Shown here: positions 8,001 to 63,499 of the stretch, piece by piece | Layout of the letters: every line of letters starts with the position of its first letter | Position numbering within the stretch: the stretch's first letter is position 1 | DNA from: Leucoraja ocellata | Taxonomy: Eukaryota | Assembly: GCA_036785375.1 (NCBI GenBank) | Contig: JAWMAR010000009.1 | Coordinates: 3,968,001 to 4,032,000 of the forward strand | Length of the DNA stretch: 64,000 bases | Reading direction: 5' to 3' | Translations under genes and position numbers: made by a program | The notes under the pieces: model-generated | Databases searched by the model: none | What the model was told of the DNA's origin: nothing | What the model saw: the letters and a program-made list of their open reading frames with translations, nothing else

Positions 8001-8340
8001 TCCTAAAACTGATCCACCCTGACAGTTTTGTCAGCTGGCAAAGCCCCATCTCCAGCACTACTAACCATCTAAACTGTGAGGATGCTCCTTTTCATTAAAT
8101 ATCACTGATATTCAGTGCCATTTAAAAACCATTAAAGTCCAAGAACATTTTTTAATTAATTAATTAGCAAAATCGATAAATTATTAAAAAAATTAAACTA
8201 GACCAAAATAATTTTAAAGAAGAATCTTGCCTTCCTCTTTGCTTCCCAGTGTAAAAGTTCCCTTGAAATCACTAGGGGGCTGAAATGCTCTGTCAATTTA
8301 GACCCGGCACAGAATCTGAGAGACAGATCCCTGGTGTGAT

Positions 8341-8541
8341 GTGTAGGAAGGAACTGCAGATTTTGGTTAACTCCCAAGATAGATAAAATGCTGGAATAAC
8401 TCAGCGGGTTAGGCAGCATCTCTGGAGAGAAGGAATGGGTGACGTTTCGGGTCTGAAGAAAGATCTTAACCCGAAATGTCACCCATTCCTTCGCTCCAGA
8501 GATGCGGCCTGTCCCACTGAGTTACTCCAGCATTTTGTGTG
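8341..8541. mobile_element. Palindromic Penelope-related mini-element with about 15-17-bp TSD
   Basis: Arms about 8381-8452 and 8470-8540 are reverse complements, with central CTGAAGA...GAAAtgtc. Flanks gatccctggtgtgat (8326-8340) / gatccctagtgtaat (8542-8556). Confidence 0.85.
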
Positions 8542-9302: not shown

Positions 9303-10663
9303 TAGGGTTGCCAACTGTCCCGTATAAGCCGGGACATCCCATATATCCCAAATATAAGCCGGGACATCCCATATATTGGGCTAAATTGGTTTGTCCCACA
9401 CGGGACCGCTCTTGTCCCGTATTTGACTGCTACTACTTGGGTCGAGGGGATTGTCGGGTCGGAGCGGCACGTCCGGCCCCGCCTCACCCGTCCCGACATA
9501 GTGCAGCCCGTGGAGTGCAGCAGCAGGGCCTCTCCGGCTGGCTGTCCGACCTTCGGACTGTTGCTTGCCGCCGACACCACCATCCCTCCTTCTCATGACC
9601 GATCATATAACCATATAACCATATAACAATTACAGCACGGAAACAGGCCATCTCGACCCTTCTAGTCCGTGCTGAACACATAATCTCCCCTAGTCCCATA
9701 TACCTGCGCTCAGACCATAACCCTCCATTCCCTTTCCATCCATATAACTATCCAATTTATTTTTAAATGATAAAAACGAACCTGCCTCCACCACCTTCAC
9801 TGGAAGCTCATTCCACACAGCTACCACTCTCTGAGTAAAGAAGTTCCCCCTCATGTTACCCCTAAACTTCAGTCCCTTAATTCTCAAGTCATCTCCCCTT
9901 GTTTGAATCTTCCCTACTCTCAGTGGGAAAAGCTTTTCCACATCAACTCTGTCTATCCCTCTCATCATTTTAAAAACCTCTATCAAGTCCCCCCTTAACC
10001 TTCTGCGCTCCAAAGAATAAAGCCCTAACTTGTTCAACCTTTCTCTGTAACTTAGTTGCTGAAACCCAGGCAACATTCTAGTAAATCTCCTCTGTACTCT
10101 CTCTATTTTGTTGACATCCTTCCTATAGTTAGGCGACCAAAACTGTGCACCATACTCCAGAATTGGCCTCACCAATGCCTTGTACAATTTTAACATTACA
10201 TCCCAACTTCTATACTCAATGCTCTGATTTATAAAGGCCAGCACACCAAAAGCTTTCTTTACCACCCTATCTACACGAGAGTCCACTTTCAGGGAACTGT
10301 GCACAGTTATTCCCAGATCCCTCTGTTCACCTACATTCTTCAATTCCCTACCATTTACCATGTACGTCCTATTTTGATTTGTCCTGCCAAGATGTAGCAC
10401 CTCACACTTATCAGCATTAAACTCCATCTGCCATCTTTCAACCCACTCTTCCAACTGGCATCATCAGTTCATGAGTTTGATGCGGTGCCGGGCCAAAACT
10501 CCTCAGCTTCCCCATTGGCTGGGCTTTGTGTGCAGTCCAGCACCCGGGCCAACTCATCATTCACCCAGCCATGCCCGAGTTGGTCAACGAATTGCCATCA
10601 GGAATTTGTCCCTTATTTTGATCTTTCGTCCATTATTTGGGAATGTGAAAGTTGGCAACCCTA
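9303..10663. mobile_element. Non-autonomous hAT (Blackjack-like TIR) with nested CR1
   Basis: TIR tagggttgccaact / agttggcaacccta. Perfect 8-bp TSD tcaccggg (9295-9302, 10664-10671). Subterminal repeats tataagccgggacatcccatatat x2. Confidence 0.9.
9603..10460 (-). mobile_element. CR1-type LINE, 5'-truncated, with open 254-aa ORF2 C-terminus
   Basis: ORF 9690..10454 (WQMEFNADKCEVLHLG...LYKALVRPILEY...LERRRLRGDLIEVFK). (CATATAAC)3 tail at 9605-9628. Confidence 0.95.
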
Positions 10664-12719: not shown

Positions 12720-13012
12720 TGTTACCATTGTCTTTGAAGAAGTTCTCCTCCTCTCTCTGACGAGGGTTCTGCAACATCCTCTCTCGCTGCACCCCCTCTG
12801 TGTTTCCTCCTGCTCATTTGTTCTACATCACTCTATAATCACCATCTATATCTTTTCGTTTCCCTTTCCCCCGACTCTCAGTTAGAAGAAGGGTCTCGAC
12901 CAGAACTGTCACTTATTCCTTTTCTCCAGAGATGCTGCCTGACCCATTGAGTCACTCCAGGTTTTTGTGTCTATCTTCGGTTTAAACCAGCATCTGCCGT
13001 CCTTTCCTACAC
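12720..13012 (+). mobile_element. Penelope-related terminus / mini-element
   Basis: gactctcagttagaagaagggtctcgaccagaactgtcac...ccagcatctgccgtcctttcctacac. Confidence 0.7.
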
Positions 13013-15075: not shown

Positions 15076-15222
15076 ATGTCCAACGCGTTGTATACCTGTC
15101 ACAACTTGAGGACAAGTGCTGGAGTAACTCAGCGCGTCAGGCAGCATCTGGAAATAGATAGATGATGTTTCGGATCGGGACACTTCTTAAGACATGGAAC
15201 TCTTCAGATTTATACATATGCA

Positions 15223-17081: not shown

Positions 17082-17608
17082 AGGGCCTGTCCCACGAGCA
17101 TGCGACAAGCGCGACCAAACCGGAAGCGGGGGCGGCGCGGAGGTCGAGTGATCCCCGTACAGGGCCTGTCCCACCAGCATGCAACTGCATGCTGCGAGCG
17201 CGACCAAAGCGGGGGCCGCGCGAAGGTCGAGTGATCCCGTACTAGTTGATGTGAAGTTCGAGCGAAGTCCGCAGGAAGTTCGCGTGTGACGTATGGCATC
17301 AAGACGCTGCGTACGGCGTCAAGACGCTGCGTACGGCGTCAAGACGCTGCGTACGGCATCGAAACGCTGCGCAGGCCCGTCGAGGCGGTGCGTACGGCCT
17401 CAATGCAGCTGCGGGCTGGCAGGCCGTTGCCACGCGGAATCTTTGGACAGTGTCAGTTTTTCGGAGCCCCGCGCGATGTCGGGACCAGCTCCGCACAACT
17501 CCATACGGCTCCGACGATCGTAGTGGGAGCGGCCCCGCGAGGCCGTATGGCTCAAGCGACCACGTTAGGTCGCACTTGCCGCATGCGACTGCTCGTGGGA
17601 CAGGCCCT
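17082..17608. mobile_element. PIF/Harbinger-type MITE
   Basis: TIR agggcctgtcccacgagca / tgctcgtgggacaggccct. 3-bp TSD TTA (17079-81, 17609-11). Internal 20-bp tandem repeat 17291-17370. Confidence 0.85.
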
Positions 17609-18159
17609 TTACAGCCGGTTTTGCACAGTGGTGGATAATGGAGCAGGCTTCAGAAGAAGGAGCCTCTTGTCAACACTATCCTCAACACTGGCAAGGCCAT
17701 TGAGTGAGTGCCCAGCATCAATGCTCAGTCTCAGCACAGTCAATGCATTTCAAGTGATATCCAGAAATGAGTGATTGCCTTGGAAAATGGCAAAGTCAAT
17801 AGATCAAAACAATATGCCGACAGCCATGCTGGAGATAATTGTTCCAAGATTACTTGCACCTCGAACCAAGTTGCTGTCGTAGACACATCCACCCGAGGTT
17901 ACCACCACCCAACTTATATTTGGCTAATACATGCAAACAAGCTTTTGGGAGATGGTCAGAATGGATATGTCGGTTGCAGGCATCTTCTGGCATGTGGGAA
18001 ATCGGTTCATTGACAATATCATTGCATCTTGCAGTGAAATCTGAATGGTTGAATTAAACGCCCTGCTTTAACTACACATTGCTCGTGGCTGGCCTATGTT
18101 TATATTTAGAGATATTGTTGGGCAGCTACATTTCCAGCTAGCAAACTCTTTGTTTTTTT

Positions 18160-21710: not shown

Positions 21711-22261
21711 AATGTCCTATTTCCTTGGCTCCAACACACCTATTGCAGTATCCACGTTACAGGATATTCTCCATTCCTTAAACTTCATTCCCTTAATTTC
21801 ATTGTGAACCATTATAAAATGGGTATGAAGTACAAGAGCACCACTACTTAATATTTCTTTCCTTGATGCACATACATTTCATAAAAGCAGCAAAAAAATC
21901 AGATATCTGTCCATTTTTATTCATATCCTGGAGCTATCATATATTTGTCAATTTCCAACCACAGAAAAATTGAGCTTAATAAACAGCAAGCTCCAGCATT
22001 TTTCTTAATCAATATAATCTTCAATTGATGAATTATATTTAATTTAGATTCTATGTTCCCTGCACTTTCCTACTGCCAGGAAAATTTACAGTTTCTATTT
22101 ATATCCTTCAATGATAAATAGATGACTTGTGGAGGTTCACAGTGCCATCTGATCAGAAATCTGATAGCTTTACTTTAGTTTTGTTTAGTTTAGAGATACA
22201 GTGCGGAAACAGGCCCCTCGGCCCACCGAGTCCGCAACGACCAGCGATCCCTGCACATTAA

Positions 22262-22695
22262 AGGGCCTGTCCCACTTGGCCGTCATTTGCGCACCATTTA
22301 AGCGACCTCCAAAAATGTGGTTGTCTACATTTATCCTGCGCTACCCACATGGGTATGGAGGAGTGTGGAGTTGCGCACGGTATCGCGCGACGCTCCAGGA
22401 TTTTGTGTTGCACAAAATCCTCGCGCGCCACCTGCGTAACGTATCGCGTATGCACGCTGACGCGTTGGGTACGCATGCTGACACATTGGCGTTGCACGCT
22501 GGCGTCCTGACGTCTCACGTCACCGTGCATAACCACGTGCTGCCGTGTGCCGCAGGGTATTCTAATGACGTCACGTGCACCAGACTGCATGATGACGTGT
22601 GATTTGCGCGCGATGTCGCGCGTAACGACGTGTTGGCCTAATTTACATATGACGCGTAAATGAGGCACAAATGACGGCCAAGTGGGACAGGCCCT
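22262..22695. mobile_element. PIF/Harbinger-type MITE (second subfamily)
   Basis: About 45-bp TIR agggcctgtcccacttggccgtcatttg.... TSD TAA (22259-61, 22696-98). Very CpG-rich. Confidence 0.9.
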
Positions 22696-22754
22696 TAACC
22701 CTATCCCACCTACGCGAGGGACAATTTACATTTAAACCAAGACAATTAACCTAA

Positions 22755-22964
22755 AATACAAAAAGCTGAAGTAACTCAGCGGGACAGGCAGCATCTCTCG
22801 AGGGAAGGAATGGATGATGTTTCGGGTCGAGACCCTTCTTCAGTCTGACACATTCCAAACATCACCCATTCCTTCTCTCCAGAGATGCTGCCTGTCCCGC
22901 TGAGTTACTCCAGCTTTTTGTGTCTATCTTTAGTTTAAACCAGCATCTGCAGGTCCATCTTACA
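22755..22964. mobile_element. Palindromic Penelope-related mini-element
   Basis: Inverted arms. The minus strand reads CTGAAGAagggtctcgacccGAAACatc at about 22816-22843. Flanked by aattaac direct repeats. Confidence 0.8.
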
Positions 22965-25070: not shown

Positions 25071-25750
25071 TGTATTGTTAAAAAAAATGGGGCAAAGTTT
25101 AAAGCTGCACTTTCTTAGAACTGAGATTTTCAGAGTTCTCAGCGTTCTGGTTCTCAGAGTTCGATTAAAAACAAAGTTGAAATTTAACAATGCATCTTGC
25201 ATTAAATGGGTTCATAGAGTCAAAGAGCCATCGAGTCTATGACTCTATGGAAACAGACCCCTCAGCCCAACCTGTGCCAACACCGGCCGACATGTCCCAT
25301 CTACACTAGTCCCTCTTGCCTGTGTTTGGCCCATATCTCTCTTAACCTGTCCTATCCATGTACCTGTCTAAATGTTTCTTAAGATTCCTGAAGAAACCTA
25401 TGGGTTCCCAAAGATACCTTTGAGCTAGCCTGGCTTTCGAATTCATGAAACAGTAAGGGTTTGAAAATAACGAGGCCTGAACACTTGGGATTCGAAAGGA
25501 GCAGCTGATGTGACATCTGATCATTTTTCAATATGAATTGTTGGTGAAATCTTTATATTTTTTGCATTAGGCTCGGCAGCTGCCGCAACTTTTATAACGA
25601 TAGATGCCTCACATTATTGATGCTGGTAATTTTAGTGAATGCAGCCTATTTTTCGTCAATAATTCTCTGTTTGAAAAGGCCAACATTTGTCTCGTCTATT
25701 CCCTTTCTGGAAGATCTTGGTTTGGCTAGCAAACTAAAGGATCATGTTGA

Positions 25751-25874
25751 AGATAGACACAAAATGCTGGAGTAACTCAGCAGACCAGGCAGCATCCATG
25801 GAGAAAGGAAATAGGTGACGTTTCAGGTCGAGACCCTTTTTCGGACCAGCATCTGCAGTTCCTTCCTACACACT
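25751..25874. mobile_element. Penelope-related mini-element with 14-bp TSD
   Basis: aaggatcatgttga at 25737-25750 and 25875-25888. Body ggtgacgtttcaggtcgagaccc. Confidence 0.8.
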
Positions 25875-25952
25875 AAGGATCATGTTGATAGCACTTTCAG
25901 AATGTTTGACTGAATTTGTATGTGAATCTAAACATTGATATTTTTATGATAT

Positions 25953-27023: not shown

Positions 27024-28077
27024 TTTGAAGCACTTTATCCCTGCAAAGGGTATTGAACATTCAATGGTGTTTTGGCAGTTACAGTGTATTCCCATTGTAA
27101 ATATGTAAATCTGCAAAGCTACCTGTCTACAAATGTTAAAGCTAAGCAGGTAATTATAGCTCCTGCAACTGTAGTTAAATGGTTATTGAGCAAAGTACAA
27201 ATTGCTGGACGAACTCAATGGCCCAATCAGCATCTGGGGAAGGAATGGAGGGGCAACGTTTTGGGTTGGGTCCTGTCTGGAGAAGGATTCCAACCTGAGA
27301 TGCCGCCTGTACCTCTTCCTCCCCAGATGTTTCCTGACCTGCTGAGTTCCTCCAGTACTTTGTGCTTTGCTCACGACTTCACCATCTGTAATCTCTTGTG
27401 TCTCCGTTAATTGTTTCCTTTGTGTTTAAAAGATATGGAAACTTTGAGTTTGGACTGAGATGGTCATCAAGAGAACGTCTGGTTCTCCTGATGAATAAAG
27501 ATGTTCATATCTACGACTCCAGAGTGACTCAGTTCACAAGTCACAATGATGATAATGGTTTAATAGAGAACAGTAACCTTGTCTTATCTGTGTACTTATG
27601 GAGTAAGGATGCCAGTCATTCATTCACTGTATGTGGACATCACTGACAAGGCAGGCTTTTATCGTCCCATCTAATGATCTCCAGGTTTTTAAGATTGCAC
27701 TATATTAGTGGTCCATGTGTTACAGTATATAGAAGATTTATTTGCAGCCAGATGATAATATTAATTACAAGGTGGAATATTAATTCTTCACGCTATTAAG
27801 CATGTGTTCTTCAACACTCCCGTCCATCTGCTCATTTTTCATTCAACGGCAGCTCTCCGTGATTAACCACGCAAGAATTTACTCATGATTAAATATTGAA
27901 ATCTGACTAAGGAAAATTATAGAATCATCTATTATCTATGAATCGTCTATGAATTATAGAATCAAGTGCAGACTTTTACCTGCACTTCACAAGGCCAACA
28001 TAATTAAGGGCCATTTTCACCCCAGTCATTCCCTCTTCTCCCCTCTCCCATCAGGCAAAGAAATCAAAGCTTGAAAG

Positions 28078-28972: not shown

Positions 28973-30171
28973 CTTGAAAGCACGTACCACTAGTTTGAGG
29001 AACAGCTTCTTCTCCAATGTTATCAGACTACTAAACGGCTCTTTGACAAGCTAGAGGGTAGACCCGATCTTCCAACCTACCTCATTGTGGACCTTGAACT
29101 TTTTATAACTGAAATTTTAATGCTAAAATGCTGTACCATTATATTCTACACTCTTGTAGCTTTTTTTTTGCACTACCTGCTGTACTTGTGTTTGGTTTAA
29201 TTGTACTCATGTATAGTTTGTTAGCTTTTCAATGTATCTCTGTACATGGGCGGTACATGTACATTGCATGACTTAACAATCCTATCAACAATTAGAGAGC
29301 GGCCCTGAACTACCATCTACCTCAGTGGAGACCCTTGGACTATTTATAATTGGACTTTACTGGACTTTATTTTACACTGTGGACAGCTTAATTGTAATCA
29401 TGGATAGTTGATCTGCTGACTGGATAGCACGCAACAAAAAACTTGACACAGTACCACAGTACACATGCCAATAAACAAATACTACACGCATGGCAATAAT
29501 ATATTAATATTAATATCAATCAGATGGTATATTTTTAACAGGGGAAATGAATAAAGATTCAACTGCAGAAAAAGCCATGAAGTGTTATGATTAAAATATG
29601 GGATGATTGCCATCTTGTATTTCAATCTCATTGCTGATTGAACAAACTATCTGTACAACAACATTCATATAGTGCAAGAAAAACTGACAGGAATATGTCT
29701 GGATTTGTTCCTGCAACACTACTGTAAAGGCTAAAATGATAAAAATGCTGAAAGCTAGTCCAGCCTGAAGAAGCACCCAAAACGTCACCTATCCAAGTTC
29801 TCCAGAGATGTTGCCTAACCCACTGAGTTACTCCTGCACTTTGTGTCTTTTTTGTGAACCAGCACCTGTGGTCCCTTATGTGTACAAACAAAGCAGTGGT
29901 AATTTTACTTTTCAAAATGTTTTTATCCTTTTTAAGTGTAAAGCTATTTCAGCAGTAAGCTTTTTTTATTTTTACAGTAGCTTAGCAGAGTGTGGCTGAA
30001 ATCCCCATTACGGGGAGGGGAACTGTCGGGGGGGTCAGGGTGTTGGGAGGGGGGAACTGAGATTCTTGATGTTCAGCATGGTGCAGCAATTGTTGGCCTG
30101 GAGTTAGCAGCCAGGTGTTAAGAGTTAAAGTTCATTATAGCATGCAATTGCAAGGTACTTGAAATGCAAGG

Positions 30172-30365
30172 TGTTTAAGAAGGAACTGCAGATGCTGGAA
30201 AATCGAAGTTACACAAAAAAGCTGGAGAAACTCAGCGGGTGCAGCAGCATCTATGGAGCGAAGGAAATAGGCAACGTTTCGGGCCAAAGCCCGAAACGTT
30301 GCCTATTTCCTTCGCTCCATAAATGCTGCTGCACCCGCTGAGTTTCCCCAGCTTTTTTGTGTACC
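30172..30365. mobile_element. Palindromic Penelope-related mini-element with perfect 15-bp TSD
   Basis: acttgaaatgcaagg at 30157-30171 and 30366-30380. Near-perfect hairpin centred on tttcgggc-caaa-gcccgaaa. Confidence 0.9.
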
Positions 30366-31384
30366 ACTTGAAATGCAAGGATGGAATTAGTCTTCCCGTG
30401 CCCTTTTCTAAATCTACTGGTTATACAGCTTTTCCGTCAATCTTGTGTCCTTTCCACCTAAGGGACTTACACCTATGAAACAAACTATTGCTGAGTGTTG
30501 AAGTTTTAGACTGCAATAAACATTTGCAGTTGAAGATCTTGCATCAAGCGGAGAACAGATTAATTTACAGCTTTGTGGTAAGAGTATAATTTTTCCGTAT
30601 TAGTACTTCTATACTTTCGACTTTAAAAAATGGTTCTGCAAATGGAGTGATTAAATGAGTTTATTACTTCTTCTGCTCCCTCAATATATATTAACATTTA
30701 ACAGATCAAAAGCTACTGAAGTTATTAAGGAGTTTATAGTTTCCGAGTGAAGCGATTGACATATGTGAGGAGATATTGGACAGATTATCTTCCATTTTGA
30801 CTGTCTGATTAAGCAGCTTTCTACACGTATTGATTGTCTGTCAAAAAAAAATCAATGAGTTTCATTTAGAGAAACCAGTTTTAAGTTGCAGCAACTATTT
30901 CCATTTGAAGTTGTAGAAAAGTATAAATGACCCATTTTGTCAGACTGATGAAGAAATGGCTGTGCTGAAGGAAAGAAGTTTGAAAGGAAGAAAATCAAAT
31001 GGATGCCGTCAACTGAAGAAAATATAATGATCCTGCAGGGTGAAATTAAATTTACCTTTAACCCTGCTTCTTTGAGCAAATGCTGAGAGCAGGGAATAAC
31101 TAAATTTATCTCTGCACAATAAAACGGGTGATGGCATTATGTCAGTCTTTCATATGAAGTGCAGAGCTCCAAGAAAATTGCATTTTTGTGACATATTTGT
31201 CAATATTACTACTTTCCTTTGTACTTTGCTGACAGGGCAATTTCTGCAAATGGTCTTGTTTGACGCCACTGGTTTTTGAAAACCTATCATGAGAGTGGAA
31301 GCTGAGATTGTGGGGGTGAGAAGTTCAACTGTTTGCCAAGGAAGCAAACACCGGTGTTGGTCTTCCAGATTTTACTCACTGGCC

Positions 31385-32809: not shown

Positions 32810-33020
32810 TTGATTTGTCCTATGGCATATCTTTCATTCGTTTGTCCTTTGTACCTTCATATCTCTAGTTTCCCTCTCCCCTGACTCAGTCTGAGGAAGG
32901 GTCTCGACCTGAAACATTACCTATTACTTTTCTCCAGAGATGCTGCCTGACCTGCTGAGTTACTCCAGCATTTTGTGTCTATCTTCGGTGTAAACCAGCA
33001 TCTGTAGTTCCTTCCCACCC
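32810..33020 (+). mobile_element. Penelope-related terminus with hammerhead-like core
   Basis: gactcagtctgaggaagggtctcgacctgaaacattacc... Confidence 0.75.
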
Positions 33021-33367
33021 AAGATTTTAAGGCGTCTTTTTAAATTAACAAGCTATGGAGAAAATAAAAATTCAAAATTAAGTAGCTGTAATCTATTTTT
33101 ACTTAACCAGCATTTTTAAATCTGCTGAAAATCTTGACATTGCAGATGCTGAAATTAGGACAGAGAATACTGGAAACACTCAGTAGGTCAGGCAGTATCT
33201 GCAGGAGGAGAAACAAAGTTATTTTTTCAGATCAAAGATCTCTTGGGAACTTCTGACAAAGTCTTATTGATGTGAATCATTAATTCTGGTTCCCTTTCAT
33301 AAAGATGCTTCCTGACCTGTCTAGTCTTTCCAGCATTTTTCTTTTTTGACAACAGTTGAGAATTGGT

Positions 33368-33500: not shown

Positions 33501-35049
33501 TCCTTCCTCCGTAGTCATTTTCTTCACTCCTCCTTTGAGCTGGTGTGGATTTCTGAACAAGTTGTCATTGTAAAGAGCAGATACGAGCAGTATTGCCATC
33601 CTAACTACCTCAAAATTTGGGCTAAGCGATCTTTCATTTCAACTGCCTGCAAAGACTCAACACTGGTCCCTGCACTACATTGCAGACTGTTCTGGATTGG
33701 CCTCCCTCTAATCCCTGCATGATGAGTCAAAAGCAAGGTGTACGAAGACCTTGGATACTTGGGCCACATCATAACTCTTCAGCAGCCTCTGGTGTTGGCC
33801 TTGATTCTCCATGAAATTGACGGTGGTTTTGGGAATTTCTGAATGAGGTAGATTATTGAGGAAAAGGAGAAGATGCTGTCAGCCATTCAGCACGGTATGT
33901 CTAGCTGTACCAATGCTGTCTCCAGCATTTATATGATTATGGAAATCAATGATGCAGCGTGAATTAACTGCTGCCACTTAAAGATAATTTGTTCAAAGAG
34001 TTTGCACCAGCTCTAAGAGACGCAAGGAGTGTTTTTGCATAGCAGAAGCTGATTTTAATGGAAGAGAGCAGCTACAAGAGACCCAGGTAGCACAATTTGA
34101 AATGCTAGTTAATTTATAAATGATTTTTTAAAAATTCCGATAGCTTAATGATTTAGAAACATTTTTTTCAAATTGTTAATTTAAAAAGACTGTGCTATAA
34201 AGTCTTCGTAATCATTTTTTAATTTAAAAGAAAAGACATTTAAAAATATTTTCAGGACTTTTAAATACAAAATTGACCAATAGCTTATTAATTTAAATTG
34301 TTATGAAAATTTTGAAAGCTTTTAAAACTTCAAACTCAGCTTATTTCTTGCAACAGTTCAGATTGAATCTAAAGCTGATTTTTTTCCCCCCTGTTTTTTT
34401 AGGGGGGGGAAGACCTAGACTGTATTGTCCAAGAATATGCCACGGTGCATAATGTCAAGCCGTGTAAAAACTTTGCAGTGCTCTTTCGATCTTCATATTG
34501 GAAGAGCTGCAGAATGTTAATATGTGTAGGAAGGAACTGCAGCAAAGATAGACACAATGCTGGAGTAAATCAGTGGGACAGCACCTCTGGAGAGAAGGAA
34601 TGGGGGACGTTTTGTGTCGAGACCCTTCTTCAGACTGTGTTTTTCATTAAATTCGCAATGACTGTAATTTCGCAGCTGACTGCAAATGCTCTGCCTCATG
34701 TCATTTGGGCCGCTGAATATTTTCATAAAGTTTGGGACAAGCATTTGAGATAGCCACTCGCATATCCATAAAGATTTTAGGAAAAACTTTCCTCGGAGAG
34801 TGGCGAGATGTGGAACTCGTTACAAATTTGGTGTTGTTGAAACAAACAACATGTAGATGCATTCAAAAGGAAATTTGATGACAATGAGAGGTTGAAAGCT
34901 ATGGAAGAATATGTTAGTGGGGGGGTGAGCTGAAACTTAAACAGAAGGCTTCCCCTGGTTTGAAGAGCGAAACTGAATGTCTTGTCCCAGTGCTGCAAGT
35001 TCTCCACCCGGATATATGCTGGGTAAAACAAAAGCAACACAATTTTACA

Positions 35050-39290: not shown

Positions 39291-41374
39291 GATGATACTG
39301 GAACAATAGTCCAAAGAAATTGGATTGTAATCAATGTCCGAGCAAATGAGAATTTGATTTATAGTTAAGGACATAGATGTGTGTTGAGATGGGTGACTGT
39401 AACATGCATGCATTTTATTGAAATTAGTTTAATATACTGTTTATCTTTATAATTCTTTGCAGTCACATGCTAATACTATTGATTATTTTATGCTTGCCTC
39501 TTGATTGTGACTAACTGTGTAAAATTGCAGCATAGATTGAGGCATAGTGTACTGCGAAGATTTAAGACGACCGATCACACCCTTCTCCAGGCAACCAGAG
39601 GTAGGTAATAAACACAAAATGCTTGAAACACCCAGCAAGTTTGGCAGCACCTGCGGAAAGAGAAACCAATTGCATTCTTCATGTCCAGGACCCATCATCA
39701 GAACCAGTCAGTCAATCTGATGAAAGGTTCCCGACCTGAAAAAATAACAATTTCTCTTTCCACAGATGTCGAGGGTTTTTTTTAGTATGTTTTATTGCAA
39801 ATTTTTATTTCAGTTCTTTTATTTTCATTTAGGGTTGGATACTTAACACTTTATCACCGACAGTCATATGCCAAGAATATATTAAAACAAGACATTTGCA
39901 ATATATTACAGATATGACCTAAAATTAAAAGGCATTTTTGTTACTGGAACTCCATGGTTACTTATCAATTCTTCTTTCAGTACTTGCTTAAAGTTTCCAA
40001 TACAACATCAGAAGTTGAAAGAAAGAAATGTTTAATGTTATTTCATTGTCGGATCTAATGGCCCAGCTATTAGTCACCATCAGAGCCTTGTCCCCAAGAT
40101 CAGATACAGCACCGGCAGCAAACATTCATGGTTTCTGCCCTGATGTATTGCATCTCTGTTTAGTTTAATTTGAAGATAGATCTGCCACAACGATCCTTCC
40201 TGTCAAATAAGCAGAAGCAGGTTTTCAATGCAATTGTGCTTAATTTCAAGATGACTATGGAAGGAATTGGCAGGGTGTAAATTTCTCTGAAAACGTTACC
40301 TAAAGTGAAGCACTGAATTCTACCAAGCAGCCATCAAGAGCACTCGGATGTGCAGTGATATTTATAGAGGCCACAGTTCAAAAATACACTTCTTGTGCTC
40401 TCGTAAGTTGGATTTGACACGTGAAAAAATACTTAATGTCACCTTCTGTATTCCTTTTGAGGTTTGTTTGAGGCAAAAGTAGGTTAATCTGGACTTTCTT
40501 GCAGGGAGGAAATGCCAAAGACTAGAGGGCATTGCTTTGAGGTGAGAGGGGCACAGTTTAAAGGTGAATGCCTGAAATGTGTAGCCAGGGGTTGTGGTGG
40601 AGACTGATAAGATAGTGGCCTTTAAGAAGATTTTAGGCAGGCAATGGATTTGCTGATAATGGAGAGATATGGATCACATGCAGGCAGAGGAGATTCATTT
40701 AAATTGGCATCATATTTGACAGACATTGTGGGCTGAAGAGCCTATTCCTGTGCTGTACTCTTTCTACATTTGATTTCAAACTTTACCCAGTTCTGATGAA
40801 AGCTATTGAAACATTAACTTTGCTTTTCTCCTCCTAGATGGTGTTGGGGCTGCTGCATATTTCCAGCATTTTGGTTTTTATTTCAGGTTTCTACCACCTG
40901 CCGTTTTTTTGCATTTTGATTCTTTTCTGACTCTTGTTCCACAGCAGAGATCAGAGTTAATTTAACACCAGCAGCCTCTGCTGCACCATTTTAGTGATGA
41001 ATTGGTAAGGATAAATGTATGAGATAGCGAGCGTCACTGTAATGTTTTTATACCAGGTATTTGTGTCGTCTTTCTGTGTGAGACGTGCAAATTCACGTCA
41101 AATTATAAAATGTTTCATATTGCAAGATTACGGATATCTGTGTTCTAGTTCTTGTGCTTTCAGCTGCATAGGCTCTAAGCTTTTGAATTCTTCTTTAAAC
41201 GTATCTGCCCCACAACCTATTATCAGTTAAGGTGCTATCTATCCAGCATACCTATGCTTCTTTATCCAGACTTTTGGCATTGTCCAATTAGTTTTAAATG
41301 GGATAAGTATACTTTTATAATGAATCTCCTGTTAATCACCTTTGCATATTTTGCCATGCTAGTGTAGTTATTAG

Positions 41375-43189: not shown

Positions 43190-45854
43190 TTAGAAAAATA
43201 CTTTTCTGGCTTTTTTATTTGCAAAGTCTCTCAAAATATTTTCAAGATCAATGGTTTTAGCAATGTCATTTTCTATAGATATCATTGCCAAATTGTTTAG
43301 TCTCTCTTGTGAAATTGTTGACCGTAAGTATGTTTTAATCAGTTTTAGTTTTGAAAAACTTCTTTCACCTGATGCGACTGTTACAGGCATTGTTAAGTAA
43401 ATCCTCAAAGCAATAAAAATCATTAGGAAATGCTGTAAATCGATTGTTTGCTACCAGGTATTCAAACAGAGCATGAGGCTTAATGATACTGGAGGGAAGA
43501 AAAGTTTTCAGAGCTTCAAGTTCTTCAGCCAATAGATAGCCATCAACGTCTTTAGTTTTTTCAGTAACTACCTCTTCATCAGTGCTCTGTTTTATTGTGG
43601 TGTCTGTTAAAGCTGCTTCAAGGTCCGCTGTGTGCTTCCTTATTTCCGCCTTCTGTATACTGAAAGTTATTTAGAAATCCAAATAATTTTACATGGCTTT
43701 TAAGTTGTTCAAATCTACACTCCATGGACTGAATAGCTTGGTCTAGCACTAAGTTGAAGCACTGAATTCTTTACGCTTCTTTTGGATCATATAAAGGTTG
43801 ATCTTTTGTCTCATATGAAAACATTCTCTTCCTTCTACGTAGTTTTTTTTCTTGAAATTGTCTAAACTCCAATGGTAATTCAACAGATTCAGCCAATTCA
43901 TTTGCACCTACTAGAACATCATTAAAACCTTCCTCTCTATAAATTCTTAGCCATGATAATAGTTTTTCAAATGACTCCATGCCTTCATCAATGTCCTTTG
44001 TTTCACCTTGTAGTTGCTTGCTTACATAGTTAACTTTAAAAAGTATTTCATACCAAAATATCAAAGAAACTAAAAATGTGTAGTCTTTTAGCTGGTTTGC
44101 TAAAGATTCAGCTTCTGCTTTTACCTTGGGCTCATCTGTTATCTCTGATATTTCCACAAGTGCATCATATACTTCTCCAACCTGATAACGAATAGCTTTA
44201 ACACTATCAATCCGACACTCCCACCTTGTATTGCTCAAGGGTTTAACTGATAACCCGGGTACATGTTTTTTAAAAACTGCCCACCTTTTTGTTGATGCTG
44301 AGAACAATATGTAGATCGTTTGCAGAATCCCAAAAAATGTTATGGCATCTGGACAACACTTGGCTACATCTCCGAGTAAAAGGTTATAATTGTGACATGC
44401 ACAGGGTACAAAAAATGCTCTTGAATTATCCTTCAACAGTCGTGCTTGTACTCCAGATGTGTGACCTTTCATGTTGCTACCGTTGTCATAGCCTTGGCCT
44501 CGAATGTCTTGCACTTCTAAATGTAATTCCTTCAGTGTGTTTAATAATGTTTTATATAAAACTTCTCCTGTGCTACTTTCAACTTGTATAAACTTTATGA
44601 AATGTTCATAAACACCCGAAGGAGCCAAGTTACCATCAGACACATACCTGATCGTTAGAGACATTTGTTCTTGGTGACTCATATCAGGTGTGCAGTCTAA
44701 AATAATGGCGTAGTACTTAGCTGCTTTTACACGTTTCAGTATTTCATTCAAAACAGCTGTAGCCATGATGTTTAGTAGTTCATTCTGAGTATCTTTTCCT
44801 AAATAGTGATTATGAATTTTGTGGGTTTTGATTTTTCGCAAATGTGTATCAAGAACAGGGTCAAACTTTACAAGCAGCTCCACAAGACCTAAAGAGTTTC
44901 CATTGTGCACACTCTCATTACCAACATTTTCTTTTGTTCCTCTAAATGCTAAATTTCTCTCAGCAAGAAACTGCACTATTGCTACTAACCTTTTGAATAC
45001 TTGCTGCCAGTGCTTTGCATGTTAATTGACGATTTTTTCACGCTCTTTTGTCAATTGTCTGTCCACTACAAAGTCTTTGGTGTAACTCCCAGAAACTCCA
45101 TGTGGTTTCTAAATGGTTCTTTGAATTTTCATGCTCACATAACCTTGTATGAAGATTACACCAGTTGTTGAATCCACTTGTTGATAATGTACTGGTTGTA
45201 TTCTTACTAAAAAGTTAAAAGTTTGCAATAAAAGCAATACATTCTATCAGCAGACTGAGTGTATATAATCCAAGGTCTTTCAACACTCTCACCATTTGTA
45301 AGTTTCCTCTTACAGTGAAACCTTGAAAAACACAATCCCTTTTCATTTCTTGGAAAGCTGGTCACTGGAATATTAGGAGGACCTTTCATTGTTAAATAAT
45401 CTCTTACATTTTTATTTATATCTGCTGGCCAACTGGTTGGGTCATCATACATGTTAATTACAACTGTACTCATGGATGATCTATCATTGCATGATGTTTG
45501 GTCTTGTTTTTCTCCGGTCATAAGTAAGCTTTCTGCTTTGGCACTGTCTTCTGGTGCATTGAGATCGTCTTCAATTTGATTCACAGCTGCGTCATCCTTT
45601 TCTAATTTGTTATCAATGTCATCATTGTATTTATCAACTGTAATTGGACTCAAAGCTATATCGTCATTTTCTGAATAGTTTTTGTTTTCTTCATCCTCAG
45701 TACATGGGCGCTTCAAAGATGGAGTGAGAAGGAATTTTTTGATAGCACCTCTATGTTTTTCATTTTCAGCTACCTTAGCCTTGACCAATGCTCGTTTCTG
45801 GTTGCCACTTAAATATTGACGCCCTTTGTCTCGATCTCTGCTTGTGCTTGCCAT
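43190..45854 (-). pseudogene. hAT transposase (ZMYM1-like/DUF4371 plus hATC dimerisation type), disrupted
   Basis: ORFs 45207..45905 (YCFYC zinc finger), 43771..44976 (IILDCTPD, GYDNGSNMKG, CACH, TRW) and 43190..43423 (PVTVASGERSFSKLKLIKTYLRS). In-frame TAA at 43771-3 plus frameshifts. ATG at 45854 in acATCATGG context. Confidence 0.92.
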
Positions 45855-45909
45855 GATGTAAGGCCTTTTTATATTATCTTTTTTAGAAAAGACAAACAAT
45901 GACAATAAT

Positions 45910-46455
45910 CTGAAATTTAAAAAAATTGTATTAACAAGAAGGAAGGAAAAAAGAAGAAGAAGGGGAAAGAAGGAAGAAAGTTTGAATGATGAAAGAAGGA
46001 AAGAACTTCAATATTAAAAAAAGTTATAAGAACTATTTTACGTTTTGAGAAATTGCCTTGTAAAGATTTTGTACGCATTTACTGTAATAAATTCTAAAGT
46101 ATTATGCCGAAATACTTGAAAATTGATGTGATTATACAAAATCTTATAAGGAAACCACTGTTATTTGGTCTTCGGAGTTGCACTAGGCTATGTTTACATT
46201 CATTACAAACATTCATTATAAACAGGTGATTCCTAGCCAAACCTACCGCTAGATAAATTTTTGAGTCATCTAACGAAACGAAACGAAACCAAACCAAACC
46301 TAACCTGCGATTGCACTTTTCATAATATAACATTAATTTAGGCCACATGTCACGGATCTACTTACCCGGGCGGAATGATTTGGCGGCGCCGGGCTGAAGG
46401 ATTTGCCGATGGTAATGCGGTGCGTTCCCCAAAAGTAAAAACTACCCTATATAAG
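45910..46455 (-). promoter_or_regulatory. Predicted transposase promoter and 5'-UTR intron
   Basis: Minus strand: TATATA at about 46454-46449, donor G|GTAAGT at 46365, long pyrimidine tract and tttcAG acceptor ending at 45910. AATAAA at 43137-43132 after the stop. Confidence 0.55.
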
Positions 46456-48160: not shown

Positions 48161-48759
48161 GAAATGTCCTTTAATTTTAAGAATGTGGAGATGTGTAAAT
48201 GAGATAGTGGTACACATTCACATCTTTATCCTTGATCCTTTTAACAGGTAACATTTTCTCAACAGAAATATTTAATTTGTATTACTTTTTCTCAACAGAA
48301 ATATTTCGTTTAAATCACAGAAATGCAGGGGAACAGGGTCAATAAAGATTGCTCAAAAGTAAAAATCATTTTACTTGAAGTTTCTTTTAACTGTGAGTAG
48401 ATTTCCTGCTGGTGTGTTTCAAGGTTCCTGGTTTGATTGCTGAATTGTTCATGTAATCTGGAATATCCTGATGGGGAATCAGTTGGTTTAGATCCTTAGT
48501 AATAAAACAACAGGTGAAAACCTATGAATTTTGAAAACTGCATGTTGAAAACATTAGAAAAATGTTGTATTGTATAAGCCAGTGATGGTTAGCCTGTCTG
48601 AAGAAGGGTCCCAACCCAAAATGTTACCTATCCATGTCCTCCAAAGATGCTGCCTGATATGCTGAGTTACTCCAGTACTGTGTCCTTTTAAGGTTAGCCA
48701 AGGTCCTGATTTCTGCGAACTTTGTTAATAAGTGCAGACAGAATAGTGCCCCTGCAATG

Positions 48760-50095: not shown

Positions 50096-51704
50096 AGAGA
50101 TGCTGAAGTTGTAGAGGAACCTGGGTTTCCTTGAACACTGATTACTGAAAATTAAAATGCAGGTAGAGGGAGCATGCCATATATTGGCCTTTATTCTGGG
50201 AGGATTTGAATACAAGACTAAAGATGGTTTGAAGAAGGGTCTCAACCTGAAAAAGTCACCTATTCCTTAACTCCAGAGATGCTGCCTGACCCGCTGAGTT
50301 ATTCCAACTTTTTGTGTCTCTCTAAAGACGCTTTAATACTATTGCATAGGGCCCTGATGCAGTGCATCTGGAATATTATGTGCATCACAAAGAATGGATA
50401 TAATTCCAGTGCAGCAAACATTCACCAGATGAATTCCTTAGATGGTGGATTTATCCCATGAAAAGGGATTAATCGGATTAGGGGCTCAACGCTGCAGCAT
50501 GAATCTGTGCGATTTTCCAAGCAAGAGGGCAGTGGAGGCTCAGCTGCTGAATTTAACACTGAGATCAATAGATCTCGGAGATTAAGGGATATGGAATTAA
50601 TGCAGGAAAAGTGGCGCTGAGATAAAGGCTATTGAATGGCCTATTCCAGCTTTTATTTTTAAAGTGCTTATCTTTTTCTGTTCACTTTGTATAATTTAAT
50701 GCATGGTGTGTGGAGCAGACAAAGCTAAACAAATATTTACTGTATCATTCATTACGTTCAGTTACATCAGTTATCCAATATTTTATGATCCCCTAGTTTG
50801 CTTTGGCCAATGGGATGCATTTGTTATCTTTTAAAAGTTTACTTGATGACAGGAACACTATATAACTTTCACTTTTTAAGCTTTACATATCACCCATCGT
50901 CCTTGGGCACATTATGTCTCAGGGCAGAAAAGCAGATGTTATCTTTTTGATTAACATTGTACCCCAGCGGAACTCCAAGAAAACAACCTTTATTAATCCT
51001 AAAAAACATCTGCTAAAATGTCCTCTCAAGATTGACACAAACTGCTGGAGTAACCCATCAGGTCAGGCAACATCTCTGGAGAAAAAGGATGGATGATGAT
51101 ATTTTGGGCTGGGACCCTTCTTCACTCAGCAAGCAGAGGGGAGGGAACTGGAGGTAAGAAAAAGTCAGAACAAATCATGGCTAGCAACAGATGCCCCAAG
51201 GAAGGGTGGAGCCCACAATGGTCCATTGTTGAATGTTGAAACTAAGAGAATATCCACTGGCAAAACATTTAAATTGTGGCATTAATATCTGTCACTATAA
51301 CCTCTAAATTAACTTCTCATTAGATGATATTTACCCAAGACCATCCAAGAGATTACTCTATATGGGCACATTCCACTGACCTGTTTCGATGAGTAAAATT
51401 GTCACAGTGGCATCAACTTTTGGAACATTTTGTTTTGCTAAGTTATAAAAAGAATCTCTGCTGATAAATATGCTTCTTGGAGGGTTCTGTGCTGTTGTGT
51501 TTGCAATGAAGTGAGAAGCTGGCTTGAAATAAAATAGAAAATGTTGGAAATTGCTCAGCTGGTCAGGCACCATCTGTGGAGTGAGAAACGACAGTCGTGT
51601 TTGAGCCTGGTTACTTTTCACTAGACCTGGCAAATATTAGAGATTTAGCTCATTTTAGGCATGTTAACAGCCAGTGAAAGGTGCAAGAACACAAGGTGGG
51701 CCTT

Positions 51705-54889: not shown

Positions 54890-55698
54890 AGGTTATCCAT
54901 TTTGGTGGCAAAAACAGGAAAGCAGACTATTATCTAAATGGTGGCCGATTAGGAAAAGGGGAGATACAGCGAGACCTGGGTGTCATGGTATACCAGTCAT
55001 TGAAAGTAGGCATGCAGGTGCAGCAGGCAGTGAAGAAAGCGAATGGTATGTTAGCTTTCATAGCAAAAGGATTTGAGTATAGGAGCAGGGAGGTTCTACT
55101 GCAGTTGTACAGGGTCTTGGTGAGACCACACCTGGAGTATTGCGTACAGTTTTGGTCTCCAAATCTGAGGAAGGACATTATTGCCATAGAGGGAGTGCAG
55201 AGAAGATTCACCAGACTGATTCCTGGGATGTCAGGACTGTCTTATGAAGAAAGACTGGATGGACTTGGTTTATACTCTCTAGAATTTAGGAGATTGAGAG
55301 GGGATCTTATAGAAACTTACAAAATTCTTAAGGGGTTGGACAGGCTAGATGCAGGAAGATTGTTCCCGATGTTGGGGAAGTCCAGGACAAGGGGTCACAG
55401 CTTAAGGATAAGGGGGAAATCTTTTAAAACCGAGATGAGAAAAACTTTTTTCACACAGAGAGTGGTGATTCTCTGGAACTCTCCGCCACAGAGGGTAGTT
55501 GAGGCCAGTTCATTGGCTATATTTAAGAGGGAGTTAGATGTGGCCCTTGTTGCTAAGGGGATCAGAGTGTATGGAGAGAAGGCAGATATGGGATCCTGAG
55601 TTGGATGATCAGCCATGATCATATTGAATGGCGGTGCAGGCTTGAAGGGCCGAATGGCCTACTCCTGCACCTAATTTCTATGTTTCTATGTTTCTATG
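54890..55698 (+). mobile_element. CR1/HER1 LINE, 5'-truncated, open 204-aa ORF2 C-terminus
   Basis: ORF 54985..55599 (LYRVLVRPHLEYCVQFWSP...RRLRGDLIETYKIL). (TTTCTATG)3 tail. Confidence 0.95.
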
Positions 55699-57289: not shown

Positions 57290-57841
57290 GTCCTCTTTTT
57301 TCATTAAATGTGATTTCCCCCGCCTGCTGATTGGATGGAGCCCTCACCAGCATTTGTGTTGCATAGTTCTTTCTCTCTCCCTCCCTCCACATGGAACATG
57401 ATGGAGTTCCACTGGTCCTCGCCTTCACCCCATCAGGCTCTGTATCCAACACATCATTCCCCAATGTGATTCAATGTGATCCCTCACAAGTCACATCTTC
57501 CTGTCCCCAACCCTTTTTGCTTTCAGTAGAGACTGTGCTCTCTGCATTTCCTTGGTTCGCCGCCCAAATCACCCCCTCCCCAGCTACTTTTCCCAACAAC
57601 TATGGGAGGTGTAACACCTGCCTCACCACCTCTCACCTCCACCCATGGATCACTGCAGCTTTTCCAGGCGAGGGATAGATTCACTTGCATCTCTTCTAAC
57701 CCCGTCTTTTGCATTCGGTGCTCCTGATGTGGCCTCCTCTACATCAGCAAAACCTAGTGTGGACGATGCATTAGTTTCACTGAACACCTGCGCTCGGTCC
57801 ATCAAGAACTGCTCCATTTCACAAATGCCAACCATTTTAAC
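57290..57841 (+). mobile_element. Decayed Penelope-like element (GIY-YIG region)
   Basis: VPLVL at about 57405, C..GRCNTC, SSNPVFCIRCS*CGLLYISKT, NHFN. Confidence 0.75.
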
Positions 57842-58190
57842 TTAAGGAGAGGAGGGGGGATGTCTCCCTCCCATTCGTACGGAACATTTGCATTTTTCAG
57901 CTTGAAATTGTGCAATCTGGTGCATACTGTAGCTTGAATGCAATATATATGCTTTAAATTGGATTGGAGCGTTTTTGAAAGGGGGGGAGGCTGTGCGATC
58001 ACAGATCACTGGCCTTGGGGGTACCCGGTGAGAGAGTGGAGCAACCGAGTGGGGAGAGGGTGTGGAAGAAGGGTGTCCCCCCTCCCAGGGTAGGAACTTT
58101 TTGAAATTTGATGTATTAAAATCATGTTTTAGTGCACTGTAGAAGTATGATTTCAATGTTTTTTGTATGAAGTATTTTTATGAGGTAACT
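57842..58190. mobile_element. Probable internal fragment of a DNA transposon (hAT-like subterminal sequence)
   Basis: Two related blocks (ggggg.tgtc.ccctccca...ttttg...tgaaattgtg...gtgca). No TIR found. Confidence 0.4.
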
Positions 58191-61340: not shown

Positions 61341-62197
61341 ATATATACACGCCCATGGCTGGAGGTATAATGGGAAAGGTTGACTCAAACATGAAAATAA
61401 GAAACCAATTTCAAACCTAAAAGTATGAAAGATAAAAGAGCAGTTATTCCTAAAAACAGACGGTGGGAGAGTTTGGCAGGTCAGGCAGCATCCCCAGAGG
61501 CTAAAGGGTGGCTCTTTTGCATATCAAAAATAAACTTGATATATAATAAAAAGTAGATTCAAATCAAATACTGTACAAAACTTGTATTACATTAGTGATA
61601 TATTTTGCACTCATTGTTGCTGGTGTTATACAGGTAGTGTTAGTACCACCTTGTTTCCTTAAACTTAATATTAAGTTAAGGCTGATGATTGTTTGGGTCA
61701 AGACTCAGGATCGGGAATGAGAGGGAAGATTGCCAGTATATAGTGGTATGGGGGGGGGGGGGGGGGGGGGAGGGGGAAAGGACAAAGGCTGGTAGGTGAT
61801 GGATGGAACTAGAGGTTGGAGATGATGAGCCATGTTGGGAAGGGAGATGGGAACAGGAAAGGTGAGCAGGAAGAAACCTAGATATACAGGTGAATATGTG
61901 TGGGAGGAGATCACTGGGAGTGTGGGTTTTCTGAAATTTGAAAATTCAGAATTGGGTTGTAAGCTATTCTAGAGGAATATGGAAGGTTGTTCCTCTAATT
62001 TCAATTTGGCCACACCAGAATGGAAAAGGCTGAGGAAGGCAGTGTCGTGTGGGAAGAAGAGCTAAAAGATATGAAACCAGAAGCTCAAGATGGAATCTGA
62101 GCAGTGAGATCCTTAAAATGGCTGTCTGGTTCCTGCAACATATCTATGATAATATACTGTAAGCAATTTATTTGATATTGATTAAAAATCGAATTGA

Positions 62198-62322
62198 AAC
62201 AAGGAACTGCAGATACTGGCATAAAACGAGACACATAGTGCTGGAGTAACTCGGTGGGTCAGGCAACATCTCAGGAGAATATGGATAGGTGACGTTTCGG
62301 GTTGGGGCCCTTCTTCAGACTG
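62198..62322 (-). mobile_element. Penelope-related mini-element with intact hammerhead-like core
   Basis: Minus strand: cagtCTGAAGAagggccccaacccGAAACGTCacc. Confidence 0.8.
62288..62322 (-). ncRNA. Candidate minimal type I hammerhead ribozyme
   Basis: CUGAAGA box, stem II (ggg...ccc), GAAA box and GUC site with palindromic ACGU stem III. Stem I is only 2 bp, so activity is unproven. Confidence 0.45.
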
Positions 62323-62930
62323 ATCTTTTTGGGCTGGAGGATGTGCGGAAGTTACGAATGACTTGATATTCAGAGTTCTAATGTGGATGGCACATTGCAA
62401 TTGATGTTTGCTGCAAACATTTCTCCCCACAACTTTGTACAAAACTGATACATGTTGTTCCCCATCACCCAATCCCTACTTTGCATTTGTGTTTTCACCT
62501 GCTTTCTATAGCATTGGAGAATTTGTCTAGCTATCTTACTTTGATTCTGTTTTGTTTAGATTCCTATTCCTAGTGTAGTTTGGATTCATTTAGAGATACT
62601 GCACAGATACGGCCCTTCAGCCCCACCTTGTTCATTCCCACTTGTTCTGTTTATCCCACATTCCATCTTTGAATAAACACCTCTGAGGGACACCATCTTT
62701 CCTGTGTGAAAGATGCTGCAATTTTTACATTGTTCATATATTGTGCTAGTACGTTGTTATTTCTGTGGAAGTCTGCAGGAATCGATAGTGAGGTTTATAC
62801 ATCTGGGAAGGCAAGAGTGGTGCATTATTTGCCTCTGAGCAGAGATGCTGAAGGGAGAGCTTTTACCATAGTTAGTTTTGATCTACTTTTCCTGTTACTT
62901 CAAGTAGTTACTGATGCTCTGTGATTCTAA

Positions 62931-63499
62931 AGGGCCTATCCCACCAGCATGCGACTGCATGCGGCTAGCGCGACCTAACGTGGTCGCTTGAGCCGTACGG
63001 CCTCATGGGGCCATTCCCACTTCGATCGCCAGAGCCGAATGGAGTTGTGCGGGACTGTCCCGCCATCGTGGGGCTCCGAAAAACTGACACTGTCCAAAAA
63101 ATTCCACGCGACAACGGCCTGTCGGCCCGCAGCCGCATTGAGGTTATACGCAGCGCCTCAACGGGGCATACGCAGCGTCTCAACACCGTACGCAGTGTCT
63201 CGACGCCGTACGCAGCGTCTTGATGGTGTATGCCTAGTGCGTGGCGTTGCGCGATGAACATCACCGCCAGGCGTGCCGTTGCGTGATGACGTAACAGCCT
63301 GACGCCATGCGACGTCCAAATTCAGTCGGCCCGCCTCCTGGCCCAGCTGATTGGTGAGTATGATGGCCGGACCAGCCACGCACAACTCCAGACGGCTCCG
63401 CGGTTGGAAGTGGGACCGGCCCCGCGAGGCCGTACGCCTCAAGCCACCACGTTTGATCGCGCTAGACGCATGCAATCGCATGCTGGTGGGACAGGCCCT
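62931..63499. mobile_element. PIF/Harbinger-type MITE with about 130-bp inverted arms
   Basis: TIR agggcct(a/g)tcccaccagcatgcga(c/t)tgcatgcg. TSD TAA (62928-30, 63500-02). Shares one arm and the 20-bp repeat core with 17082-17608 in opposite orientation. Confidence 0.9.

Follow-up and report, generated by a model that had tools for sequence, protein, structure and literature searches.

The repeat at the focal position in this 64-kb stretch of Leucoraja ocellata DNA (hereafter the window) is, to judge from its sequence surroundings, the terminal pseudo-LTR (pLTR) segment of a Neptune-type Penelope-like element (PLE), because copies of it follow GIY-YIG endonuclease ends in the same orientation, as in an element found on an unrelated metagenome contig (L002). 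The segment carries a minimal hammerhead motif, and we consider it likely that most of its copies are short, dead-on-arrival reverse transcripts of uncut RNA. The putative Neptune-type assignment is drawn from a linker motif and not from an RT tree.

The preliminary description of this DNA had reported an abundant repeat of about 130 bases. An iterated nhmmer model seeded from the focal copy confirmed it, with 32 matches in the window and none in the reversed window used as a control, and all 14 of the coordinates given in that description lie inside these matches. Together the matches cover 3,505 bp, or 5.5% of the window, at a density of about one copy per 2 kb, and their identity to the majority sequence has a median of 80% (range 56-92%). 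The quoted motif CTGAAGA...GAAAC-GTC proved to be the majority sequence of the family, but the exact string through GTC occurs nowhere in the window; its first 25 nt, with up to three mismatches allowed, were found in 7 copies and in none of 100 shuffles. The variant CTGATGA is present both at 39717 and at 40793, as had been noted.

The repeat had also been described as very high in copy number, and public DNA runs agree. Four of the 24 listed runs, at least one of them from a relative, were mapped to window positions 6240-7000 at 80% likeness. In two public contig sets, with 56,917 and 48,655 mapped records, the hammerhead reached a summed contig depth of 7-8 million, compared with 21-34 for unique flank and no more than 67,000 for the endonuclease relic, which is more diverged and so biases the last comparison. 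The ratio of hammerhead to unique flank, 2-4 x 10^5, is an order of magnitude and not a copy number; the public runs suggest a rough genome copy number on the order of 10^5. Hosts of minimal hammerheads named in the sections of PMC4209133 consulted here include fish, coelacanth (about 4,000), Xenopus (about 9,000) and reptiles, with no cartilaginous fish among them, and the abundance in the present genome looks far above that of those hosts. Axolotl carries up to 120,000 retrozyme copies according to the part of PMC7229834 used here. A search of the open-access literature listed no study of this family, which may already be catalogued in Repbase or Dfam, in subscription journals or in supplements, all outside the scope of that search. 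A literature search on Penelope hammerheads and sharks likewise found no shark ribozyme study; the "shark" of PMC6155905 was rejected as a simile for a shape.

The proposed link to Penelope elements is upheld within the window. The copies at 6710 and 7331 follow GIY-YIG C-terminal relics in the same orientation (Table 1), and the relics reported earlier proved real, with a linker at 4719-4914, an endonuclease at 6229-6585 and a further relic at 57467-57916. Because the contiguous relic at 57467-57916 matches both of the first two, these probably come from a single element that an insertion has divided. Two more GIY-YIG relics lie at about 7798-7842(-) and at 61839-62095(-). A full HMMER search with relic 6271-6489 gave 36 protein matches. 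GIY-YIG matches, weak to cut-off level and mostly below the curated cut-off, were found in 6 of 14 scanned proteins, and 9 of the 10 proteins looked up were named from whale shark, little skate, Atlantic stingray or sevengill shark. A word-indexed homology search with the 105-aa relic found none among 17 candidates, and Pfam gave no match to the two window relics searched.

A full-length relative, P0038 (893 aa), has an RT, a Cys-rich linker and a GIY-YIG domain. The Cys linker motif is found in the relic near 57600 and in proteins P0003, P0009 and P0038, and such a linker marks Neptune and Nematis in the sections of PMC8557442 used here. Within the 64-kb window there is no RT-coding piece or full-length element of the repeat's PLE family; PLE-type RT was found in the relatives P0038 and L002 only. 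Exact-pattern scans returned no match in viral contigs and three loci in metagenome contigs (L001, L002 and L003). In L002 an RT-linker-EN frame, which matches P0038 at 35% (E 2e-54), is followed by a stop, about 180 nt and then a near-identical hammerhead. L001 (1937-2125) and L003 (2848-3036) have in common a PLE endonuclease tip with an inverted hammerhead, whose core is unchanged and whose 4-bp stem I differs in sequence. The C-termini of P0003, P0009 and P0012, from skate, stingray and shark, are PLE endonuclease ends that are fused to host domains or frame-shifted, and these proteins are likely gene-model artefacts or exonised relics.

Table 1. Copies of the repeat and associated PLE relics in the window, in order of position.
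Feature	Coordinates	Strand	Remarks
Copy with short upstream part and tail	1018-1148	+	
PLE RT-EN linker relic	4719-4914	+	5' half of probable split element
PLE GIY-YIG endonuclease relic	6229-6585	+	One in-frame stop
Copy placed as 3' pLTR	6710-6841	+	About 130 bp after GIY-YIG relic 6229-6585
PLE 3' end	7331-8015		Minus-strand; GIY-YIG tip 7798-7842, about 350-nt 3'UTR, pLTR 7331-7440
Inverted stub	7899-8015		At 5' junction of the minus-strand 7331-8015 PLE end
Head-to-head pair	8326-8559		Long-tail and short arm; within 17-nt TSD-like direct repeat
Copy with about 38 nt of upstream pLTR and tail	12845-13010	+	TATA-like and initiator-like motifs
Solo stub	15104-15201	-	Start -2
Head-to-head pair	22748-22956		Short arm and long-tail arm
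Stub with inverted tail fragment at 5' end	25737-25888		Minus-strand stub; within perfect 14-nt TSD
Head-to-head pair, older	27166-27395		
Solo stub	29757-29875	+	Stem II deleted
Head-to-head pair	30157-30380		Junction inside stem II; within perfect 15-nt TSD
Copy with about 42 nt of upstream pLTR and tail	32850-33018	+	Highest-scoring copy
Head-to-head pair, old	33139-33357		
Solo stub	34533-34648	-	
Head-to-head pair, older CTGATGA type	39604-39770		
Older CTGATGA-type copy	40783-40905	+	4-bp stem I; stem II partly deleted
Solo stub	48587-48700	+	Start -2; within 8-nt TSD
Solo stub	50218-50330	+	Start -2; within 7-nt TSD-like repeat
Copy with upstream CT-rich part, without tail	51018-51165	-	
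PLE linker (CxxxxCxxC-like) and GIY-YIG relic	57467-57916	+	3' pLTR not detected
Decayed PLE GIY-YIG C-terminus	61839-62095	-	About 100 bp downstream of focal copy
Focal copy, pLTR stub	62198-62323	-	Initiator-like TCAGT, hammerhead, downstream block, tail
Focal minimal type I hammerhead motif	62287-62321	-	Core 62290-62318

Positions within copies are counted from C3, the C of CTGA, which is 62318 in the focal copy. On this scale the focal copy runs from -5 to +123, and no target-site duplication (TSD) was found for it. Its motif consists of a 2-bp stem I, CUGAAGA, an extra A, a stem II of 3 bp (4-5 bp in the majority), GAAA, CG and UC. The predicted cut falls between 62291 and 62290, or between +27 and +28 in the family frame. 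Alone among the 32 copies, it keeps the whole core including the C-G of the ACGU palindrome. The GIY-YIG tip at 61839-62095(-) is followed by a CT-rich 3'UTR with a possible hammerhead remnant near 61690-61712; this second PLE 3' end, at 61690-62110(-) and in the same orientation as the focal copy, may be a chance neighbour or a deleted partial tandem. The focal copy, like the other long-tailed copies, also contains an 8-bp inverted repeat in which the ATG region (+48..+55, about 62266-62273(-)) pairs with the tail (about 62206-62213(-)). This pairing is complete in 5 of the 14 copies checked and mostly kept in several others; it shows little covariation and may be a candidate RT-binding stem.

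In the family majority, 3 nt precede CUGAAGA, which is followed by an extra A, a stem II of 4-5 bp, GAAA, CG, UC and the 3' strand of stem I; this last stem is 2 bp long and adjoined by an A.C mismatch. The CUGANGA, GAAA and UH boxes stand in order in both the majority and the focal copy, and all are kept in order in 8 of the 32 matches. The extra A lies between positions 9 and 10.1 in 21 of 23 rows, and the closing pair G10.1-C11.1 is standard in 13 of 16. The ACGU palindrome, which replaces helix III at 15.2-16.2, is present in the majority, in the focal copy and in L001-L003, and has gone from most copies through CpG decay. Covarying families, an extra base between 9 and 10.1, G10.1-C11.1 and a palindromic 15.2-16.2 are the four recurring marks of PLE minimal hammerheads in the consulted sections of PMC4209133. 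With the extra base, the closing pair and the palindrome all present, the earlier recognition of the motif as a minimal type I hammerhead like those of Penelope elements stands, and so does the suspicion that many copies may be dead, as 31 of the 32 are without the whole core.

Covariation was scored on an alignment of 14 hand-picked window copies with L001 and L002. In these 16 rows, which represent few lineages, 72% of cells were paired and the score was 0.21, against 0.13 in shuffled alignments (0 of 500 as high), and the true stem register was the best of seven, all six slid registers being worse. Stem II was 86% paired, and in stem I only the first two pairs hold (13 and 14 of the 16 rows). 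We take this as suggestive support for helices I and II, and as suggestive only because the alignment holds few independent lineages. Identity to the majority was computed over 23 of the 32 rows, nine having been dropped with the core missing or barely aligned, and came to 0.86 for CUGANGA, 0.87 for GAAA, 0.62 for the adjoining spacer and 0.84 for the block +42..+83. In the comparison of core with flanks proposed in the preliminary description, the core thus exceeds the spacer but not the downstream block, and it is therefore not specially protected in the copies. Greater conservation of the core than of its flanks was rejected as a test of function, since the copies decay neutrally.

An Rfam scan of the window gave 96 matches at E<=10, none of them to a hammerhead family, and the top ones were GA/CT-rich artefacts. 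A purine-rich and then pyrimidine-rich tract at 3800-4210 gave rise to dozens of spurious Rfam miRNA-precursor matches. Predicted folding energies disfavour the active form: the active dimer of the majority sequence was calculated at -6.1 kcal/mol, a competing duplex at -21.1 and two monomers at -11.0. Folding of whole copies was no better than that of shuffles (z 2.2 for the focal copy, -0.1 for the best copy). The RNA data came from one polyA and one single-cell library, in which small or circular RNAs would be missed; 6,760 of 7.3 million reads mapped in X22 and 19,235 of 17.6 million in X23. Over the core, X22 reads are split roughly evenly between the strands, and 95-99% of them continue into unlike sequence, partly because the reference copy is diverged. 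A look for RNA ends at the cleavage position had been suggested as a check; neither X22 nor X23 had a place listed where many molecules begin or end. The reads fit host-transcript read-through.

It is somewhat unlikely, in our estimate, that the hammerhead-like motif has lost its activity in this lineage and persists only through descent or as a hairpin for protein binding. The 2-bp stem I with its adjacent A.C mismatch, the active fold disfavoured by modelling, a core no more conserved than the downstream block, the lack of an Rfam hammerhead match and the lack of RNA ends listed at the cut site are all in line with such a loss. On the other hand, the window types and the distant L001 and L002, whose flanks are unrelated, agree in the core, the extra A, the G-C pair and the palindrome, and stem I shows two-sided changes between the window types and L001/L002. 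Furthermore, the equally minimal PAc ribozyme cuts with its protein, according to the sections of PMC11167929 used here. A non-catalytic motif would be compatible with the rest of the PLE-stub account.

The ends of the copies were analyzed in the 18 of 32 matches with an alignment score of at least 60. A tail of about 35 nt is optional at the 3' end: nine copies end at +83..+96, nine at +122..+128 and none between. Half of the copies (9 of 18) have their start in the interval -5..-1, where uniform truncation would place 5.3% (P about 1e-7). Copy 6710 is among these nine because its 3'UTR differs from the reference; it is ORF-linked, which leaves 8 of 18. Three copies extend upstream by 19-42 nt into a common part, and 51018 extends by about 35 nt of a similar CT-rich stretch. 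None of the 18 starts at the cleavage site (+26..+30), a weak result with about one expected. Among the six best-supported loose ends of each run, those at 6718 (X22, X2, X7) and 6719 (X22), corresponding to -3/-2, have unrelated flanks (agreement 0.31-0.33), and a second class, before 6716, continues into the common upstream pLTR. This common part contains a TATA-like word (TATATC, weak) about 32 nt before the A of TCAGT, which is an initiator-like word. Before CUGA the sequence is rich in pyrimidines, closes with CAG and can also be read as a splice acceptor. When a cap-derived extra G was sought by eye, G was found at -3 in 3 of the 6 copies that start at -2. The first ATG (+50) opens a short frame only, and the start of the ORF was not found.

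Eight neighbouring pairs lie less than 150 bp apart, of which six are head-to-head, two tail-to-tail and none tandem. Six head-to-head pairs compare with 0.95 expected at random (P 0.00015). The tail-to-tail neighbours, at 7186-7440 and 32882-33242 and separated by 66 and 127 bp, are not a significant excess (0.94 expected). In this one window there are no tandem arrays of the repeat, either as neighbours or among 31 TRF rows; a few "goes back" joints in the public runs indicate that rare tandems exist. TSDs were scored for 23 hand-delimited units. TSD-like repeats scored at least 8 in 7 units (null 5.2%) and at least 10 in 3 (null 0.2%), and a clear TSD was missing in 16, including the focal copy. 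The three best of these repeats (17, 14 and 15 nt) surround whole inverted units, and a pair is therefore one insertion event. Unequal arms, one long and one short, are clear in three close pairs and in the 25739 unit, probable in two further pairs and unreadable in two.

We propose the following cycle for the parent element. The pLTR would serve as a polymerase II core promoter, with the TATA-like word at about -32 and an initiator-like TCA+1GT, and PLE RNA would begin at an A or G 2-3 nt before CUGA, as copy ends and motif spacing suggest. A TATA and Inr pair is reported in a rotifer pLTR in the consulted part of PMC3846280. Stem I may be only 2-4 bp because the transcript begins just before the ribozyme core. 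RT would begin inside the RNA at one of two sites. A start in the 5' pLTR would bring it to the end of the template after 90 or 125 nt, leaving a stub, and one in the 3' pLTR would leave a 5'-truncated copy with 3'UTR and endonuclease tip. A stub would in this way be a cDNA that covers the 5'-most 90-125 nt of an uncleaved PLE RNA in full, inserted by the PLE's own enzyme. Extension could take place at both ends of the cut target, and the resulting two cDNAs would fuse, through microhomology (8443) or the self-complementary stem II (30182/30281), into a head-to-head pair with one long and one short arm. Stubs would lose the upstream TATA-like box and would not be expected to propagate themselves. 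In an active source element the hammerhead may cut weakly, as a protein-assisted dimer only, which would remove the first 31 nt or so, and cut RNA would not be the main template. Comparable steps are described for PAc of the anole, which cuts and extends both strands and in vitro starts RT at two internal sites matching the tail, with uncut RNA as the template and a hammerhead that cuts only with protein (PMC11167929, sections used). Inverted pLTRs, an optional 30-40 bp tail on one end and a TSD are given as PLE hallmarks in the portions of PMC3846280 and PMC8557442 used here.

Two of these steps have an alternative that we regard as unlikely, in which the fixed 5' start is a splice acceptor or an RT stall and pairs arise from fold-back self-priming at hairpins such as stem II. 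Splicing or stalling is suggested by the pyrimidine-rich stretch ending in CAG before CUGA and by the D. virilis Penelope intron, which ends at helix I (PMC4209133, in part), and fold-back by the pair 30182/30281, which is joined within stem II, and by the self-priming already proposed for PLEs (PMC3846280, in part). However, copies 48588 and 50222 have 1-2 nt between the TSD and the -2 start, which leaves no room for an upstream exon, and the two arms are unlike in sequence and in length of tail, an outcome not predicted when a single cDNA simply folds back.

That the stubs are an independent non-autonomous pLTR-derived family, SINE- or retrozyme-like, with its own transcription and PLE proteins supplied in trans, is very unlikely: stubs do outnumber ORF-linked ends (hammerhead depth of about 7-8e6 and no more than 6.7e4 for the endonuclease relic, a comparison biased by the greater divergence of the relic), they have a sharp 5' end in common and non-autonomous PLE derivatives have been described (PMC8557442 and bioRxiv 10.64898/2026.07.22.740005, sections used), but there are no tandem units in the window, stub ends are not at the cleavage site (weak, with 0 of 18 and about one expected), stubs are without the upstream TATA-like segment, X22 RNA reads lie on both strands and run into unlike sequence in 95-99% of cases with no pile-up of molecule ends listed, and internal RT initiation gives the same ends without a second family. 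The "retrozyme-like" non-coding family of the preliminary description is thus not retained; there are no tandem arrays in the window, the ends are not at the cleavage site and the repeat is, by its context, the element's own pLTR.

The PLE-stub account can be compared with systems already described, each as presented in the sections of the papers used here. The min-HHRs of PLEs (Cervera and de la Pena 2014, PMC4209133) have the same CUGANGA and GAAA boxes, extra base, G10.1-C11.1 and palindrome, lack helix III, have a short helix I and a pLTR position, and occur mostly as single dispersed copies of truncated PLEs. Helix I is mostly 4-5 bp in the published examples and 2 bp in D. virilis, and is 2 bp in the main type here; helix II here is 4-5 bp. 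Neptune PLEs (PMC8557442, PMC3846280) have inverted pLTR pairs, an optional tail and TSDs as well, whereas most inserts here are reduced to 90-125 nt, which likely span the transcript start to the tail sites. PAc, a Poseidon element of the green anole (Frangieh et al. 2024, PMC11167929), is alike in that two 3' end points correspond to two internal RT starts, in a hammerhead that is dispensable for insertion and in the absence of RNA-seq ends at the cut site. It belongs to another clade, however, and its ORF begins at stem II, where the ATG at +50 here opens a short frame. Animal non-LTR retrozymes (PMC7229834; bioRxiv 10.64898/2026.07.22.740005) are short and non-coding, with a type I hammerhead and a PLE-related origin, but they form tandem units of 150-450 bp with mostly canonical ribozymes and circular RNAs, whereas the copies here carry minimal ribozymes, lie dispersed or as inverted pairs, and have ends that do not coincide with the cut site. 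The same preprint traces animal retrozymes to pLTRs and reports them from the single chondrichthyan in its sample, with a mean unit of 363 bp.

The window contains other features of note. Tandem repeats of 20 bp lie in GC-rich stretches at 17290-17403 and 63169-63220, and related translations are found in GC-rich stretches at about 17250-17770, 62940-63320 and 22190-22720; these stretches are probably another repeat family. At 43771-46007(-) there are two long, fairly well preserved ORFs of 266 and 416 aa, and the second matches DUF4371 (E 5e-12) and presumably resembles a hAT-type transposase. Open frames of 256 aa at 9690-10460(-) and 235 aa at 54892-55599(+) resemble what we take to be the C-terminal part of a CR1/L2-type LINE ORF2; Pfam had no match for the 256-aa frame.

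Minimal hammerheads in PLE ends, present as scattered truncated copies, have been known since 2014 (PMC4209133, in part), and the present family changes no category. What is notable here is its abundance, together with the record kept in the copy ends. The origin of PLE tails and inverted structures and the role of the weak ribozyme are stated to be open in the portions of PMC8557442 and PMC11167929 used here. Taken together, the observations allow a joint reading that we advance tentatively and consider rather doubtful as a whole. Cartilaginous fish would have the largest hammerhead load of any vertebrates, at 10^5 or more copies per genome, and the stubs would be an in vivo record of the Penelope cycle, with transcripts that begin with the ribozyme's first base. 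Carrying two RNAs, a PLE protein dimer would prime both target ends from two internal sites, giving unequal arms. The same two-RNA complex would supply the dimer required by a hammerhead without helix III, and the ribozyme would therefore act as a switch, triggered by protein, that removes the cap from the mRNA of its own element. In practice, such relics will swamp ribozyme scans and gene models in sharks and skates. Their value is as a resource, as about one copy per 2 kb lets counts of ends test the start site, the two RT starts, the asymmetry of the arms and the share of cut template.
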